This document shows, in pieces, positions 119 to 8,834 of a DNA stretch of 29,797 bases. Source of the stretch: a virus (taxonomy: Duplodnaviria > Heunggongvirae > Uroviricota > Caudoviricetes); the IMG/VR virus record IMGVR_UViG_2671180378_000015; one strand, written 5' to 3'. Below the pieces are notes generated by a model. It had not been told where the DNA came from and searched no databases. It saw only the letters and a program-made list of their open reading frames with translations. Both the position numbers and the translations under genes were made by a program. Position 1 is the first letter of the stretch. Every line of letters starts with the position of its first letter.

Positions 119-352
119 AAAAAGAACAAAGGGTAGTGTCCGCTGTTGCCAGTACACCGCAATAGTTGCAATTCATAATTGATCATGGGTTGTCAGTTAA
201 ACTCGTGGCGATTTAAATAGACTAATTGGGAGTGCGTCCATTACTTATATCTTGTAATGTTAACTATCAGAAATGATACAAAGATAATATGTCTTTAAAG
301 AAAAGGCTGATGGCGAAAAGTGGCCCGATGAGGGCCACAATACGGCTGTCAC

Positions 353-685
353 TTAGACGTAAATATCAATGGTGCCAGCGGTATTTGTATCGTCTTTTTT
401 CTCTTCTTTTTTATCAGGCTGAACTGTCGCGTCTTTATTCTTTTTCTCTGCCTGCTGCCTTAACAACTGCTCCAGTTGAGCCCTGAGGCTTTCAATTTGC
501 TTCTGTACCAATGCAGCCATTTCTTTTTTCTGCTGTGTCGTCATCCCCTCTTCCGATGAGATTTTCCCAAGCTTTTCAGTCAGCACCTGAATTTGTCTTG
601 TGATTTTGGCTATTTCTGATGTTCCTTCCGGGGCGGAGTTGTTTGAAATAACGGTTGAGGTATTTCCCTGAATTGTGACAGACAT
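353..685 (-). CDS. flxA: FlxA, FliA-regulated prophage protein (110 aa)
   Basis: ORF track 110 aa MSVTIQGNTSTVISNN...; recognised as Qin flxA; preceded by a sigma28-type promoter. Confidence 0.85.
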   Translation of the reverse strand: MSVTIQGNTSTVISNNSAPEGTSEIAKITRQIQVLTEKLGKISSEEGMTTQQKKEMAALVQKQIESLRAQLEQLLRQQAEKKNKDATVQPDKKEEKKDDTNTAGTIDIYV

Positions 686-708
686 AGATTTCTCCTTTTA
701 AAAAAGCA

Positions 709-735
709 CTATCGGCATGCACAAAAAAATCTTTA
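709..735 (-). promoter_or_regulatory. sigma28 (FliA) class-3 flagellar promoter for flxA
   Basis: Minus strand reads TAAAGATT-N11-GCCGATAG, near-perfect match to sigma28 consensus TAAAGTTT-N11-GCCGATAA, about 25 nt upstream of flxA start; RBS AGGAG (rc of 686-690) before ATG. Confidence 0.6.
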
Positions 736-887
736 ATCGTATTTCTTGTGTCATTAATTGTTTGATGTTCAGATTGTTTTCCTCGCGGGCTGGCGCGCCT
801 CAGAAAGTAAAGCTTGTTGACAGGGGTAAACGTTCGGCAATAATTTTCTGCCGCATGCGGGTGTTGCATAAAACGTGCTACGTTCCT

Positions 888-1193
888 TTATCGACAGGTC
901 AGGTCACCGCTCACCCGCCGACGAGAAAGCAACACTGACATGCTAAAGCAAAAAATAGATGAATAAGTTGAGTTGTGCATATGTAGCCTGACCGTCACAA
1001 AGTATATGGTGTCTGTACCAGTAAGATGATGGCCGGACTCTTTAAAAACGAGCTGACCTGCACAATACAGGATGGACTTAGCAATGGCTGCTCCTGGCAC
1101 AAAGCGGACAGTGATCACCGTTCTTACGACTACTTTCTGACTTCCTTCGTGACTTGCCCTAAGCATGTTGTAGTGCGATACTTGTAATGACAT
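888..1193 (-). CDS. ydfV: YdfV-like small prophage protein (101 aa)
   Basis: ORF track 101 aa; position between flxA and relB matches Qin ydfV. Confidence 0.55.
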   Translation of the reverse strand: MSLQVSHYNMLRASHEGSQKVVVRTVITVRFVPGAAIAKSILYCAGQLVFKESGHHLTGTDTIYFVTVRLHMHNSTYSSIFCFSMSVLLSRRRVSGDLTCR

Positions 1194-1206
1194 TTGTAAT
1201 TACAAG
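1181..1206 (+). promoter_or_regulatory. relBE operator (relO) inverted repeat in promoter region
   Basis: cttgtaat gacatttgt aattacaag palindrome (CTTGTAAT / ATTACAAG arms) 12 nt upstream of relB start. Confidence 0.6.
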
Positions 1207-1217
1207 AGGTGTAAGAC

Positions 1218-1457
1218 ATGGGTAGCATTAACCTGCGTATTGACGATGAACTTAAAGCGCGTTCTTACGCCGCGCTTGAAAAAATGGGTGTAACTCCTTC
1301 TGAAGCGCTTCGTCTCATGCTCGAGTATATCGCTGACAATGAACGCTTGCCGTTCAAACAGACACTCCTGAGTGATGAAGATGCTGAACTTGTGGAGATA
1401 GTGAAAGAACGGCTTCGTAATCCTAAGCCAGTACGTGTGACGCTGGATGAACTCTGA
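1218..1457 (+). CDS. relB: RelB antitoxin (79 aa)
   Basis: ORF track MGSINLRIDDELKARSYAALEKMGVTPSEALRLMLEYIADNERLPF...; ATGA overlap with relE. Confidence 0.9.
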   Translation: MGSINLRIDDELKARSYAALEKMGVTPSEALRLMLEYIADNERLPFKQTLLSDEDAELVEIVKERLRNPKPVRVTLDEL

Positions 1458-1744
1458 TGGCGTATTTTCTGGATTTTGACGAGCGGGCACTAAAGGAATG
1501 GCGAAAGCTGGGCTCGACGGTACGTGAACAGTTGAAAAAGAAGCTGGTTGAAGTACTTGAGTCACCCCGGATTGAAGCAAACAAGCTCCGTGGTATGCCT
1601 GATTGTTACAAGATTAAGCTCCGGTCTTCAGGCTATCGCCTTGTATACCAGGTTATAGACGAGAAAGTTGTCGTTTTCGTGATTTCTGTTGGGAAAAGAG
1701 AACGCTCGGAAGTATATAGCGAGGCGGTCAAACGCATTCTCTGA
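1457..1744 (+). CDS. relE: RelE mRNA-interferase toxin (95 aa)
   Basis: ORF track MAYFLDFDERALKEWRKLGSTVREQLKKKL...; start overlaps relB stop. Confidence 0.9.
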   Translation: MAYFLDFDERALKEWRKLGSTVREQLKKKLVEVLESPRIEANKLRGMPDCYKIKLRSSGYRLVYQVIDEKVVVFVISVGKRERSEVYSEAVKRIL

Positions 1745-1815
1745 ACCAAAGCATGACATCTCTGTTTCGCACCGAAGGTGACACTTCTGCTTTGCGTTGA
1801 CAGGAGAAGCAGGCT

Positions 1816-1971
1816 ATGAAGCAGCAAAAGGCGATGTTAATCGCCCTGATCGTCATCTGTTTAACCGTCATAGTGACGGCACTGGTAACGAGGAAAGACC
1901 TCTGCGAGGTACGAATCCGAACCGGCCAGACGGAGGTCGCTGTCTTCACAGCTTACGAACCTGAGGAGTAA
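1816..1971 (+). CDS. hokD: HokD (RelF) Hok-family membrane toxin, 51 aa; not in ORF track (below size cutoff)
   Basis: Hand translation from ATG 1816: MKQQKAMLIALIVICLTVIVTALVTRKDLCEVRIRTGQTEVAVFTAYEPEE, stop TAA 1969-1971; hydrophobic N-terminal TM segment typical of Hok family; RBS caGGAGaagcaggct ATG. Confidence 0.8.
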   Translation: MKQQKAMLIALIVICLTVIVTALVTRKDLCEVRIRTGQTEVAVFTAYEPEE

Positions 1972-2040
1972 GAGACCCGGCGGGGGAGAAATCCCTCGCC
2001 ACCTCTGATGTGGCAGGCATCCTCAACGCACCCGCACTTA

Positions 2041-2066
2041 ACCCGCTTCGGCGGGTTTTTGTTTTT
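2041..2066 (+). terminator. Rho-independent terminator after relBE-hokD
   Basis: acccgc ttcg gcgggt stem-loop followed by T-rich tract (tttttgttttt). Confidence 0.6.
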
Positions 2067-2187
2067 ATTTTCAACGCGTTTGAAGTTCTGGACGGTGCCG
2101 GAATAGAATCAAAAATACTTAAGTAGCGCGCAGGGATAAGAGGGATGGTCCCTTAAAGGGGAGAGCTAATTATCCGGAAGGATTCTG

Positions 2188-2439
2188 ATGATGAACATCG
2201 AAGAACTGCGTAAAATTTTTTGTGAAGATGGCCTCTATGCTGTGTGCGTTGAAAATGGAAATCTTGTTAGTCATTACCGCATTATGTGTTTGCGAAAGAA
2301 TGGGGCTGCGTTAATTAATTTTGTGGATGCTCGGGTCACGGACGGATTTATCTTGCGCGAAGGTGAGTTTGTCACTTCATTACAGGCATTGAAAGAGATC
2401 GGAATAAAAGCTGGCTTTTCTGCTTTTTCAGGAGAATAA
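2188..2439 (+). CDS. rem: Rem-like small prophage protein (83 aa), unknown function
   Basis: ORF track MMNIEELRKIFCEDGLYAVCVENG...; position between hokD and ydfU as in Qin. Confidence 0.65.
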   Translation: MMNIEELRKIFCEDGLYAVCVENGNLVSHYRIMCLRKNGAALINFVDARVTDGFILREGEFVTSLQALKEIGIKAGFSAFSGE

Positions 2440-2505
2440 ACTCATCTACAATCTTGCGCGGGGCTGAACTCCCGCTGAGTAACACCGTGCCACCGGAGAA
2501 AACCG

Positions 2506-2784
2506 ATGGCACGCAACGCAAAATATTACAATTCTGATAATTCGCCCGTTCTTGCCTGCACGCACGGGCGGTATTCTCACGCATTCAAGTCTGAATGGTT
2601 CCAGCACCCTCCATGCACTGCAGAACAGGCCGAATGGCTGATTCATTCTTACCGCAGGCGCGGGTTCGAGGTTAAGAAAGCTCTCAGTCTCGACTATCGG
2701 CACTGGATAATCTCTGTCAGGCTGCCTTATTCCGAACGCCCACCACGTGCGTCCCGCACTTTCCAGCAACGGATCTGGAGGTAA
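2506..2784 (+). CDS. Hypothetical protein (92 aa), translationally coupled to ydfU
   Basis: ATG 2506 preceded by GGAGaaaacc; its stop TAA 2782-2784 lies 1 nt before the GTG start of ydfU and its last codons contain the ydfU RBS (GGAGG 2777-2781). Confidence 0.5.
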   Translation: MARNAKYYNSDNSPVLACTHGRYSHAFKSEWFQHPPCTAEQAEWLIHSYRRRGFEVKKALSLDYRHWIISVRLPYSERPPRASRTFQQRIWR

Positions 2785-2785
2785 C

Positions 2786-3835
2786 GTGCGGGTATTACTT
2801 AGACCTGTTCTGGTGCCTGAGCTTGGGCTGGTGGTCCTTAAGCCGGGCCGTGAATCCATACAGATATTTCATAATCCTCGAGTGCTGGTGGAACCGGAAC
2901 CAAAAAGCATGCGTAATCTGCCATCCGGAGTCGTTCCTGCCGTTCGCCAGCCGCTGGCGGAAGACAAAACATTGCTGCCGTTTTTTAGTAACGAACGGGT
3001 GATTCGTGCTGCTGGCGGCGTTGGCGCATTGTCCGACTGGCTATTACGTCATGTTACATCCTGCCAGTGGCCTAATGGCGATTACCATCACACTGAAACA
3101 GTCATTCACCGTTATGGTACCGGCGCAATGGTGTTGTGCTGGCACTGCGACAACCAACTGCGTGACCAGACATCGGAATCACTGGAGCTGCTTGCTCAAC
3201 AAAATCTGACAGCATGGGTGATTGACGTCATCCGTCACGCAATAAGCGGTACGCAGGAGCGGGAATTATCTTTGGCTGAATTATCCTGGTGGGCGGTCTG
3301 CAATCAGGTGGTGGATGCACTACCTGAGGCTGTATCGCGTCGTTCGCTGGGATTACCAGCGGAAAAAATCTGCTCGGTGTACCGCGAAAGCGACATCGTA
3401 CCGGGAGAGCAGACCGCCACCAGCATATTGAAACAACGCACAAAAAATCTTGCACCGTTGCCTTACGCCCACCAGCAACAAAAATCACCACAGGAAAAGA
3501 CGGTGGTAAGCATCACCGTTGATCCAGAGTCTCCGGAATCTTTCATGAAGCTGCCTAAACGTCGCCGCTGGGTTAAGGAGAAATACACACGTTGGGTTAA
3601 GACACAGCCGTGTGCTTGCTGCGGTATGCCAGCCGACGATCCGCATCATCTGATTGGTCACGGGCAGGGCGGAATGGGAACAAAAGCACATGATCTCTTT
3701 GTGTTGCCTTTGTGCAGAAAGCATCACAACGAGCTGCATACGGATACAGTGGCATTTGAAGATAAGTATGGCTCCCAACTGGAGCTGATATTTCGTTTTA
3801 TCGATCGCGCGCTGGCAATTGGCGTACTGGCGTAA
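2786..3835 (+). CDS. ydfU: YdfU, DUF968-type protein with C-terminal Cys/His-rich HNH-like motif (349 aa from GTG)
   Basis: Open frame 2747-3835; preferred start GTG 2786 with GGAGG 5 nt upstream; C-terminus CACCGMPADDPHHLIGHGQGG...LPLCRKHHNELH resembles an HNH/His-Me finger. Confidence 0.7.
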   Translation: MRVLLRPVLVPELGLVVLKPGRESIQIFHNPRVLVEPEPKSMRNLPSGVVPAVRQPLAEDKTLLPFFSNERVIRAAGGVGALSDWLLRHVTSCQWPNGDYHHTETVIHRYGTGAMVLCWHCDNQLRDQTSESLELLAQQNLTAWVIDVIRHAISGTQERELSLAELSWWAVCNQVVDALPEAVSRRSLGLPAEKICSVYRESDIVPGEQTATSILKQRTKNLAPLPYAHQQQKSPQEKTVVSITVDPESPESFMKLPKRRRWVKEKYTRWVKTQPCACCGMPADDPHHLIGHGQGGMGTKAHDLFVLPLCRKHHNELHTDTVAFEDKYGSQLELIFRFIDRALAIGVLA

Positions 3836-3848
3836 GTGGAGAACGAGC

Positions 3849-4601
3849 ATGAACCTTGAAGCCTTACCAAAATATTACTCCCCAAAATCTCCAAAATTGA
3901 GCGATGACGCTCCAGCGACAGGCACCGGTTGTTTAACAATTACGGATGTAATGGCAGCGCAGGGGATGGTGCAGTCGAAAGCACCACTTGGGTTGGCCTT
4001 ATTTCTGGCAAAAGTTGGTGTTCAGGACCCTCAGTTTGCGATTGAAGGCCTGCTAAATTACGCGATGGCACTGGATAACCCGACATTGAACAAATTGAGT
4101 GAAGAAATCCGGTTACAGATTATTCCTTACCTCGTGAATTTTGCCTTTGCTGATTACTCCAGGTCTGCGGCAAGTAAGGCTCGCTGTGAGCATTGTTCAG
4201 GTACGGGATTTTATAATGTATTGCGCGAAGTGGTGAAACACTACCGACGCGGGGAATCTGTAATCAAGGAAGAATGGGTGAAGGAACTATGTCAGCATTG
4301 CCATGGTAAGGGTGAAGTCAGCACAGCGTGCAGAGGGTGTAAGGGTAAAGGGATTGTTCTGGATGAAAAAAGAACCCGGTTTCATGGCGTACCGGTATAT
4401 AAGATTTGTGGGCGTTGTAATGGAAACCGGTTTAGTCGTTTACCGACCACGCTGGCACGACGTCATGTCCAGAAGCTGGTACCAGACCTGACCGATTATC
4501 AGTGGTATAAGGGGTATGCGGACGTCATTGGTAAACTGGTAACAAAGTGCTGGCAGGAAGAAGCATACGCGGAAGCGCAATTGAGGAAGGTGACGAGATA
4601 A
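3849..4601 (+). CDS. quuQ: Late-gene antiterminator Q (phage-82/21-type, Cys-rich zinc-binding) (250 aa)
   Basis: ORF track; start taken at MNLEALPKYY (ATG 3849); CxxC...CxxC clusters (CEHCSGTG, CQHCHGKG, CRGCKGKG, CGRC); position immediately upstream of a promoter-terminator pair. Confidence 0.85.
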   Translation: MNLEALPKYYSPKSPKLSDDAPATGTGCLTITDVMAAQGMVQSKAPLGLALFLAKVGVQDPQFAIEGLLNYAMALDNPTLNKLSEEIRLQIIPYLVNFAFADYSRSAASKARCEHCSGTGFYNVLREVVKHYRRGESVIKEEWVKELCQHCHGKGEVSTACRGCKGKGIVLDEKRTRFHGVPVYKICGRCNGNRFSRLPTTLARRHVQKLVPDLTDYQWYKGYADVIGKLVTKCWQEEAYAEAQLRKVTR

Positions 4602-4632
4602 ATGATTTTTGCTGAAGATGGCGACATGATGT

Positions 4633-4661
4633 TTGCATTTTTCAAAAAATATGGATAAAAT
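4633..4661 (+). promoter_or_regulatory. Candidate late promoter pR' (Q-modified)
   Basis: TTGCAT (4633-4638) - 17 nt - TAAAAT (4656-4661), about 30 nt downstream of Q stop, followed within 60 nt by a terminator, as expected for a Q-utilisation unit. Confidence 0.45.
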
Positions 4662-4706
4662 TTTTTCAACGATGGGCTTTGTATACCCGACGTTAAGAAA
4701 AAGTAG

Positions 4707-4735
4707 AAAACCCGCTGATGAGCGGGTTTTGTGCT
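4707..4735 (+). terminator. Candidate tR' terminator downstream of late promoter
   Basis: aaaacccgct gatg agcgggtttt stem-loop plus U-tract. Confidence 0.6.
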
Positions 4736-5022
4736 TTAAATGGGGCAATGGTAATGTTGAATCTCATCCCGGGACTCATGTCTGTTAACTTATTATTTAG
4801 CTGGTGACTTGGTTATTTGCCTGATGTTTAAAATGTTTTCTTCCAGTACAATGTCCCTAAACACAATGAGTCTGCTTATTATATTATTAGCAGAGCTATT
4901 ACGGCCAAAGTACAGCATAAGCTTTTAAAGCCAATCAACCAGTCATCAAGACAGACGGGGTTATTCATAAAAACTCTCCATGTGTGATCCGATGGGGCCT
5001 GAAATTAAAGCTTTAATATAGC

Positions 5023-5235
5023 TCATGAAAGGTAAACATTGGCAGCTGAAGGGCCACGCAGACCATTTATCCGGCAAAATTCCACGCGTAATCCGGTGGT
5101 AATTTCTTCTGCATCGCGGAGATTGAGCGCTGAAACATGAAGCTGGACATCGATACGACCATCGGATGGGGTGATAAGACCCTTGCCGCTTTTGCCGTCA
5201 AAGGTTTTGACAATTCCTGTCATTTTACGGGACAA
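5023..5235 (-). CDS. cspF: CspF cold-shock-domain protein paralog (70 aa)
   Basis: ORF track [40 protein letters not shown]...; CSD fold signature. Confidence 0.85.
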
Positions 5236-5368: not shown

Positions 5369-5535
5369 GATTGCGTCGGTTTGAAGAACAGACGATATAC
5401 GAAGTAGTTTACTAAAGCAGTTCTCATTTCAGGTGTTATTCACTTATTCCTTCTTTGAGTCTCTCCAATTAAGTACGAAGTCGTTTCTGTTATGCAAACC
5501 ATTTATGCCGAAAGGCTCAAGTTAAGGAATGTAGA

Positions 5536-5751
5536 ATGTCAAATAAAATGACTGGTTTAGTAAAATGGTTTAACGCTGATAAAGGTTTCGGCTTTATTTC
5601 TCCTGTTGATGGTAGTAAAGATGTGTTTGTGCATTTTTCTGCGATTCAGAATGATAATTATCGAACCTTATTTGAAGGTCAAAAGGTTACCTTCTCTATA
5701 GAGAGAGGTGCTAAAGGTCCTGCAGCAGCAAATGTCATCATTACTGATTAA
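5536..5751 (+). CDS. cspB: CspB cold-shock protein (71 aa)
   Basis: ORF track [38 protein letters not shown]...; RNP1-like KGFGFI motif. Confidence 0.9.
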
Positions 5752-6032
5752 AATTCATCGCTCGTCTGTATACGATAACGAAGAAGGCTGATGCCTGAGT
5801 AGAGATACGGACAGAGTAGTGAATATTGGATCTCTTTAATAAAAAGTAAGGAGGTCCAATACATGAAACAATGGCTAGCATATTTGGCAAAATCTTAATC
5901 AGGAAAAGTATGCTAACCATTGTGGTGAAGTGCAGGTTTGCTGCATGAATAGTTTCACAGCAGAAGCTAACTGCTGGCATCGCAAAACAAAGTGCGTAAG
6001 TGGATGACTCCCACAAAAAGCACCACAATCTC

Positions 6033-8271: not shown

Positions 8272-8422
8272 GGTGTTCTGGTTTGTTACAAATTTATCTG
8301 AAGCAGTCATTGTTATAATTTTATTATTTGTACCTCTTGAGATTTCCTTGTTGGTTTTTCTCTCTGATATTTTTTTTCGGACCATTCTGCCCAAGGGCTA
8401 ATTTCTTCAAAAGGTAATAATT

Positions 8423-8635
8423 ATGTCTAACAAAATGACTGGTTTAGTGAAATGGTTTAACCCTGAAAAAGGTTTTGGTTTCATCACGCCGAAAGATGGC
8501 AGCAAAGATGTGTTTGTCCATTTCTCAGCAATTCAGAGCAACGATTTCAAAACATTAACTGAGAATCAGGAAGTTGAATTTGGTATTGAGAACGGACCTA
8601 AAGGTCCTGCCGCTGTTCATGTAGTGGCGCTTTGA
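8423..8635 (+). CDS. cspI: CspI cold-shock protein (70 aa)
   Basis: ORF track [45 protein letters not shown]... Confidence 0.9.
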
Positions 8636-8834
8636 GGTAGACAATATTACAAACCATATTCACTTTAGATGCCCGTGTTGTCATGGTTCCCAGTATAGAA
8701 CATCATCTTTTGATGTTTCTGACATGAATCCTTTCGGGGCAAAATGTATCTTTTGTAAATCAATGATGATTACATTTGATAATATTTCACAATACTTAAA
8801 TGCCAGCCGTCTGTCGTTGGATTTAAAAAAGTGA
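8625..8834 (+). other. Open frame encoding a second Cys-rich zinc-ribbon-like peptide lacking a canonical start (possible non-canonical start or decayed paralog)
   Basis: Frame reads ...HFRCPCCHGSQYRTSSFDVSDMNPFGAKCIFCKSMMITFDNISQYLNASRLSLDLKK stop 8832-8834; first ATG (8724) lies after the first Cys cluster; strong terminator immediately downstream. Confidence 0.3.

Follow-up and report, generated by a model that had tools for sequence, protein, structure and literature searches.

The window, by which we mean the whole 29,797-nucleotide stretch of viral DNA analyzed (IMG/VR record IMGVR_UViG_2671180378_000015), carries a relB-relE-hokD module made up of the following genes and signals.

1181-1206, no strand assigned: inverted repeat CTTGTAATGACA / TGTAATTACAAG, 92% complementary in a repeat search, immediately 5' of relB
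1218-1457, plus strand: relB, type II antitoxin and autorepressor (Pfam RelB PF04221, 112.3 bits; MG1655 annotation, 100% DNA identity)
1457-1744, plus strand: relE, mRNA-interferase toxin (Pfam ParE_toxin, 51 bits; annotated as relE in MG1655)
1802-1806, plus strand: Shine-Dalgarno (SD) sequence AGGAG of hokD, with a 9-nt spacer to the ATG
1816-1971, plus strand: hokD (relF) ORF, 51 codons plus a TAA stop, ATG start, product MKQQKAMLIALIVICLTVIVTALVTRKDLCEVRIRTGQTEVAVFTAYEPEE
2040-2066, plus strand: intrinsic terminator of the hok transcript, from a terminator scan, with an identical copy in the intact hok locus

The ORF at 1816-1971 had been described in an earlier note on this DNA as a Hok-family gene of 51 codons with a hydrophobic N-terminus and a good ribosome-binding site, and the proposal was made to depend on similarity to Hok/Gef proteins. 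That similarity was checked and found. The Pfam profile HOK_GEF (PF01848) matched the encoded peptide at 82.9 bits (E=1.2e-23, with a cut-off of 22) over model positions 1-42 of 42, i.e., over the whole domain, and because of this profile score the ORF is not a chance one. In addition, it was 100% identical to hokD of MG1655. The NCBIfam Hok subfamily model NF007279 scored 48.5 bits with HokD, which is under its strict cut-off of 73 bits. An alignment of HokD with HokC, Hok of plasmid R1 and four plasmid alleles showed the N-terminal helix to be present and all of the invariant residues to be kept (C15, T17, T25, R26, L29, C30, E31, E40, V41, Y47, and E48), and HokD fits the Hok/Gef plan of a protein of about 50 residues with an N-terminal hydrophobic helix and conserved C, T, TR, LCE, EV and YE. 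The AGGAG sequence, placed 9 nt before the ATG, agrees with the ribosome-binding site that had been described. The gene at 1816-1971 is hokD (old name relF), which encodes an inner-membrane toxin of the Hok/Gef family, and overexpression of its coding sequence has been reported to be toxic (bioRxiv 10.1101/2025.08.07.668861). The gene had also been called missing, which was correct insofar as it was hidden by the length cut-off of the ORF listing, where it appeared on the plus strand once the minimum was lowered to 20 aa, but not otherwise, as hokD is present in public annotation.

Knowledge of hokD/relF and of the relBEF operon dates back to the 1980s. The earlier reading of the locus as a three-gene relB-relE-hokD module is upheld by the Pfam matches, the MG1655 annotation and the published co-transcription. 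The relBE portion has the components of a type II toxin-antitoxin system, namely a RelB gene, a RelE gene, an overlap of the relB stop and the relE start in ATGA at 1457, and an upstream inverted repeat in the operator position. This repeat, at 1181-1206, sits where the relBE operator (relO) is expected, and given the known autoregulation of relBE it is the putative operator. The relE stop ends at 1744, leaving an intergenic region of 71 nt (1745-1815) before hokD; the 72 nt given earlier holds as the distance from stop to ATG, but not as the length of the intergenic DNA. The promoter scan returned no promoter-like site between relE and hokD. The terminator that had been proposed to follow the ORF was found as a hairpin at 2040-2057 and a T-run (TTTGTTTTT), and was the only terminator-like site in 1000-2300. 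As it ends the hok transcript, it therefore ends the relBEF operon. Just past it, at 2080-2109 and upstream of rem (2188-2439), is TTGAAG-18-TAGAAT, the only plus-strand promoter-like site in 1000-2300.

That relBEF is a three-gene operon is already known, as relB, relE and relF (= hokD) are co-transcribed on one mRNA (PMC3598666; PMC5120126) whose induction is abolished by deletion of the relB promoter (PMC3598666). When several toxins were induced, no fragment of the relBEF transcript was more abundant than its relF portion, which accumulated following toxin-induced cleavage (PMC3598666).

Positions 1150-2150 of the window were 100% identical to E. coli K-12 MG1655, where the RefSeq annotation under the match is relB, relE, hokD and ydfV, and to many other E. 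coli; at least 80% of this stretch was held by 1,162 of 5,426 complete E. coli genomes. Comparison with the Qin prophage of K-12 showed 99.84% identity over window 161-5150, with the gene order flxA-ydfV-relB-relE-hokD-rem common to both and with no differences in the relBEF locus itself. However, K-12 Qin is defective, whereas the window prophage has a full morphogenesis module and is nearest to prophages of E. coli O26:H11, the identity to these over the rest of the window being 99.9%. From the K-12 Qin identity over 161-5150 and the O26:H11 identity elsewhere, the source is a lambdoid prophage of the Qin type from a strain other than K-12, whose relBE-hokD locus is that of K-12. The lambdoid late region, within positions 5000-29797, is complete, with genes for the terminase, portal, tape measure and tail-tip protein J. 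Near the other end of the window, positions 2-118 are the final 38 codons of a gene for an IS transposase, which scores 27 bits with Pfam rve_2, and identity to K-12 Qin begins only at 161. Two cspA-type thermoregulator 5' UTRs (Rfam RF01766) were identified at 5375-5767 (162 bits) and 8277-8662 (113 bits), both of which mark cold-shock genes of the prophage.

The first base of the window that is homologous to intact hok loci is 1802, 14 nt 5' of the ATG, which places a breakpoint at 1801|1802 with the junction sequence ...GCGTTGAC|AGGAGAAGCAGGCTATG, as determined by alignment and by pairwise BLAST against UTI89 and E. coli B. A BLAST search with 1700-2080 against the 5,426 E. coli genomes gave two classes of match. 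In 1,161 genomes the whole query is covered, and in thousands more the match, of 98-99.6% identity, does not begin until query position 103 (= window 1802); in the latter, hokD is annotated and relE is absent. The hokD-type hok/sok loci of UTI89 (L002) and E. coli B (L003) are intact and lie in lambdoid prophages. Their identity to the window is 98-99.6% over the region that starts at -14 and takes in the ORF, 3' UTR, fbi and terminator, and the prophage genes downstream are also those of the window (DUF968 and an antiterminator, with rem in E. coli B only), but 5' of the breakpoint they have ~600 bp of unlike DNA. There the intact loci keep a leader of ~170 nt with the hok promoter, tac, a mok-like start and a sok-promoter-like site, whereas the window has a block of relBE DNA.

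1095-1801, plus strand: relBE block TGGCAC...GCGTTGAC, 707 bp, comprising the promoter/operator, relB, relE and a 57-nt trailer
1745-1801, plus strand: leader between relE and the SD, part of the relBE block and not of hok according to alignments to the intact loci

The loss of the leader was also evident in searches with Rfam RF01794, a family of 157 positions (cut-off 59) that, despite its name "sok", models the leader of the sense hok RNA, beginning at tac and finishing at the hok start. In UTI89 and E. coli B it scored 113-115 bits over the ~175 nt that lead up to the hok AUG, and in two intact plasmid loci (L005 and L006) 97-105 bits; window 1000-2600 gave zero matches at E<=1, and the other relBE-fused loci tested gave no match. 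The intact loci have a hok promoter, TGGAGA-16-TAGAAT, that ends 6 nt upstream of the G-run of tac. At 19 codons 5' of hok, an in-frame ATG provides what reads from the sequence as a mok-like extension, and on the minus strand TTGCCT-17-TAACCT is placed as expected for the sok promoter. Of this sok-promoter-like site a single nucleotide, belonging to the -35 hexamer, remains in the window. A TGA at 1798-1800 in the hokD frame closes the upstream extension, and a mok-like extension is therefore impossible. In the search for a mok frame, the sole overlapping ORF (1797-1964, TTG start) had neither an SD nor a family match. The trailer at 1745-1801 was also considered as a remnant of the hok promoter and tac, which was rejected because its local alignments to four intact loci were equalled or bettered by 600-1961 of 2000 shuffles.

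Together, these data show that hokD in the window is a hok locus truncated on its 5' side. From -14 to the terminator it is the DNA of the intact loci of other E. coli prophages. The hok promoter and ~155 nt of the hok leader have been lost, and with them tac, ucb, the start of mok, the target of Sok and both the promoter and the gene of sok; the 707-bp relBE block stands in their place. That hokD lacks sok and mok is already known. In PMC12214031, which cites Pedersen & Gerdes 1999, the absence of the canonical toxin-antitoxin components at hokD is attributed to genomic rearrangement, and the chromosomal hok genes other than hokB are stated to have been inactivated by IS elements or, for hokD, by rearrangement. 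Our analysis adds the exact breakpoint and the inventory of hok mRNA elements that were kept or lost. As hokD is a known gene whose lack of sok and mok is documented, the finding in itself matters little, and its useful outcome is a clean annotation.

It had been claimed that no sok-like RNA or mok overlap is obvious at hokD, and this was borne out by the RF01794 result, the in-frame TGA and the lack of any minus-strand promoter in the hokD region that passes the promoter scan. A sok-like RNA was also not detected by other Rfam models, as no family matched the hokD start region. Nevertheless, two weak sigma-70-like sites lie on the minus strand across the hokD start, TTAACA-18-TAGCCT (1840 to 1811) and TAAACA-18-TAACAT (1863 to 1834), each with 8 of 12 matches, and E. 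coli genomes contain several other hok loci, at a median of two places per genome. These observations would be compatible with hokD still being antisense-controlled, either by an unrecognized cis RNA or in trans by the Sok of other hok loci. We consider such control very improbable. The two minus-strand sites are below the scan threshold in a region without an Rfam match, and they are also found in intact hokD loci, and thus are not a substitute made by the fusion. In addition, the Sok target region and the mok start are located 5' of the breakpoint and are absent from the window, and because of their absence a trans Sok has no pairing partner. We infer that hokD has no antisense antitoxin.

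Besides the SD and the ORF, the retained elements comprise a helix closing the SD and AUG, a 3'-UTR hairpin, fbi, the terminator and a UACG editing codon. Those that lie within the ORF or between it and the terminator are the following.

1944-1963, plus strand: 3' arm of the closing helix, in which 1803-1805 pairs with 1960-1962 and 1811-1820 with 1945-1954
1954-1956, plus strand: Tyr47 codon TAC in TACG, with the TadA A-to-I site A1955 (Tyr to Cys)
1979-2000, plus strand: 3'-UTR stem-loop GGCGGGGGA-GAAA-UCCCUCGCC, in the MFE folds of a fused and an intact locus, from the hok mRNA
2021-2033, plus strand: fbi (fold-back inhibition) element CCUCAACGCACCC, assigned by homology to the tac partner in the intact locus

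The helix that closes the SD and start codon was conserved in an RNAalifold analysis of eight hok loci from three clades, in which it showed a compensatory CG/UA change (alignment columns 14/152), and it recurred in single-sequence MFE folds. The hokD RNA from 1780 to 2066 had a predicted folding energy of -111.5 kcal/mol (z=-3.84 relative to shuffles). In the MFE fold of the intact E. coli B locus, tac (2346-2357) pairs with 2720-2732, which corresponds to window 2021-2033, i.e., to fbi, and this natural partner of fbi is absent from the window. The MFE fold of the window included an 8-bp pairing of the leader with fbi (1793-1800 with 2023-2030). Among 3000 shuffles, 122 matched its duplex energy of -17.4 (p about 0.04). 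The pairing was not reproduced in the plasmid homologue L004, where 952 of 3000 shuffles were as good, and that the leader takes the place of tac as the partner of fbi would be a weak possibility.

In the mRNAs that TadA edits, a TAC Tyr codon inside UACG is presented in a loop like that of tRNA-Arg. The UACG motif is located at 1954-1957, where the predicted local hairpin is weak (-2.5 kcal/mol, 9-nt loop). Editing of the hokD mRNA by TadA has been reported at the Tyr codon that aligns with Cys46 of HokB (PMC5630033), at a level of ~6% (PMC12214031). The Rfam family isrK, a Salmonella prophage sRNA, matched 1980-2061 at 25 bits (cut-off 50, E=0.007) and the intact loci at 25-28 bits. Along with rsmX (20 bits, cut-off 56), this sub-threshold match in the hokD 3' UTR was rejected as a hairpin-plus-terminator resemblance.

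The paradigm of type I toxin-antitoxin systems is hok/sok/mok (parB) of plasmid R1. Its Hok has 41% amino acid identity to HokD, and the two agree at the Cys, Thr, Arg, Glu and Tyr positions that are invariant; at the RNA level both have fbi, the terminator and the helix in which the 3' end of the ORF closes off the SD and start. Unlike R1, hokD has no Sok RNA, mok, tac or ucb, and because these are absent the R1 regulatory cycle (summarized in PMC9841398) cannot operate at hokD. Of the canonical hok/sok/mok features, the 3' fbi and terminator were found, but not a Sok with its own promoter, a mok frame, or a 5' tac and ucb. The closest chromosomal paralogue of hokD is hokC/gef, with 80% amino acid identity and ~80% nucleotide identity over the ORF. 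The hokC gene keeps the mokC extension and a leader, neither of which is present at hokD.

Fusion of the relBE block to a hok gene is not confined to hokD. The block was compared in 18 loci from plasmids, prophages and draft-genome contigs (L004, L018, L022, L023 and others). Its length was exactly 707 bp and its identity 99-100% in all of them, and at least five unrelated sequences flanked it on the left. At one and the same nucleotide, -14 of the ATG, the block runs into a hok gene. On plasmids and contigs outside Escherichia/Shigella this gene is one of at least four alleles other than hokD, which brings the number of fused alleles to at least five. The fused alleles are 58-85% identical among themselves and have 31-41% amino acid identity to HokD. 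Besides Escherichia/Shigella, the hosts of the block were Klebsiella, Enterobacter, Pseudocitrobacter, Huaxiibacter, Superficieibacter and Candidatus Pantoea alvi; in a Citrobacter copy of relBE-hok, hok is disrupted. The fused loci tested are without the sok leader, whereas close intact relatives of the same hok allele (L005 and L006) have it.

Several of the relBE-hok loci of plasmids have been interrupted at the junction. In some, an insert of ~1.1 kb, presumably an IS, lies exactly at the SD with an 8-bp duplication, ACAGGAGA, and in other plasmid copies an IS21-like element lies directly against the end of the block. The copies with one or the other insertion are L008 (1600-2720), L012 and L009/L011 (at about 1600). 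These insertions are reminiscent, by analogy, of the inactivation of hokA, hokC and hokE by IS elements in K-12.

The control of hokD had been left as an open question. What stands of that question concerns the level at which HokD is translated; the missing toxin-antitoxin components had already been published. In the literature covered, no study was found that directly measured HokD made from the native operon, or the amount translated from the relBEF mRNA. Taken as a whole, we consider very probable the account of hokD as a truncated hok gene, the third cistron of relBEF, without an antisense antitoxin and with an output set by RelB(E)-repressed transcription and probably weak translation. 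For the control step itself, repression of transcription by RelB or RelBE together with a weak intrinsic translation is the most likely arrangement. Autorepression by RelB or RelB-RelE at the 1181-1206 repeat would set relBEF transcription and so exert the first control on hokD, and hokD expression would be expected to rise when RelB is degraded. Translation of hokD may then be kept low through the loss of mok coupling and the retention of the helix that would bury the SD and AUG. Because the coupling ORF is gone and the closing helix remains, hokD translation is probably inefficient. The potency of HokD may be limited further, as the change of Tyr47 to Cys depends on rare editing.

Modeling of RNA structure did not substantiate the second of these steps, the low translation of hokD. 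The partition function of the whole operon mRNA gave unpaired values for the ribosome-binding sites of 0.47 (hokD), 0.45 (relB) and 0.45 (relE), and with regard to occlusion of the SD and AUG in the operon mRNA the hokD site is thus predicted to be no less accessible than those of relB and relE. Local anti-SD hairpins in the leader were rejected as candidates since their z scores (-0.5 and -0.04) were at the level of shuffled sequences.

A different reading of the same inventory is that hokD is an inert relic, a passenger on the relBE transcript that is essentially never translated and has no function in the operon. The canonical activation elements (tac, mok coupling, and refolding after 3' processing) are all gone, the helix that closes the SD and AUG has been kept, and in PMC12214031 and PMC5630033 hokD is described as inactivated by rearrangement, all of which would be in keeping with a relic. 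However, the hokD ORF was unbroken in every complete copy among the 72 IMG/VR phage contigs that bear the junction, with only four single variants, the hokD allele being present in 72/72 of them, and it has ~100% identity in 1,162 E. coli genomes. Moreover, the same relBE block is fused to at least five hok alleles with intact ORFs, and the SD of hokD is a good AGGAG whose modeled accessibility is like that of the relB and relE sites. The presence of an IS exactly at the SD in several plasmids also suggests expression that is high enough for counter-selection. We consider it doubtful that hokD is such a relic, and prefer control through RelB(E)-repressed transcription and weak translation.

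The recurrence of the junction raises the further proposal that relBE-hok is a selected hybrid module, in which RelB-controlled transcription replaces Sok, rather than an accident of the K-12 lineage. A near-identical block in 18 loci, the same junction nucleotide, at least five hok alleles, about eight enterobacterial genera and the lack of the sok leader in the fused loci tested are all consistent with selection. The junction may, however, have had a passive origin, in which a single fusion was followed by recombination with resident hok paralogues up to the edge of homology. Such an edge would be provided by a block of ~19 nt, from the SD to the ATG, that is common to all of the hok alleles. 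The dinucleotide at -7/-6 varies with the hok allele, and the exchange point is therefore inside AGGAGAA. The IS insertions at the junction are a further point against selection, as they argue that expression can be costly. We put selection forward tentatively, as the less likely explanation of the recurrent junction.

If the fusion has been selected, or has arisen by site-directed capture, relBE-hok would be a hybrid type II/type I module in which transcriptional control by a protein antitoxin substitutes for an antisense RNA. The latest large survey of Hok considered coding sequences only and left regulatory elements aside, and the occurrence of the relBE block before several hok alleles without the Sok leader could merit a small comparative study.

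The ends of the relBE block have imperfect terminal inverted repeats, formed by 1087-1124 and the reverse complement of 1773-1811, with a local score of 38 relative to 14.8 +/- 3.1 for shuffles (0/2000 as good); the right arm extends into the SD of hokD. In most plasmid contexts, the left boundary of the block is inside a small hairpin, GTCCGCTT-CTGGCACA-AAGCGGAC. The last ~50 nt of the block (within 1753-1806) have two GACAYYTCTG repeats and end in GCGTTGACAGGAG. An empty site, whether as the left flank of relBE beside an intact hok leader or as the two arms of the terminal repeat side by side, was not found in any of the 5,426 E. coli genomes. As for an integron cassette with attC, the ends of the block, judged by eye, do not fit the R'/R'' consensus.

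Sequences related to the trailer of the block were observed away from relBE. In Escherichia sp. ESNIH1 (L019 2190-2270, minus strand), a trailer of ~50 nt with 85% identity is located before a hok gene without relBE, and a divergent tacAT-like pair lies upstream of this trailer-hok arrangement. Parts of the trailer (32-52 nt) were also identified in two non-enteric MAGs (L031 7848-7899 and L021 2495-2525), in the second of which the fragment adjoins toxin-antitoxin genes.
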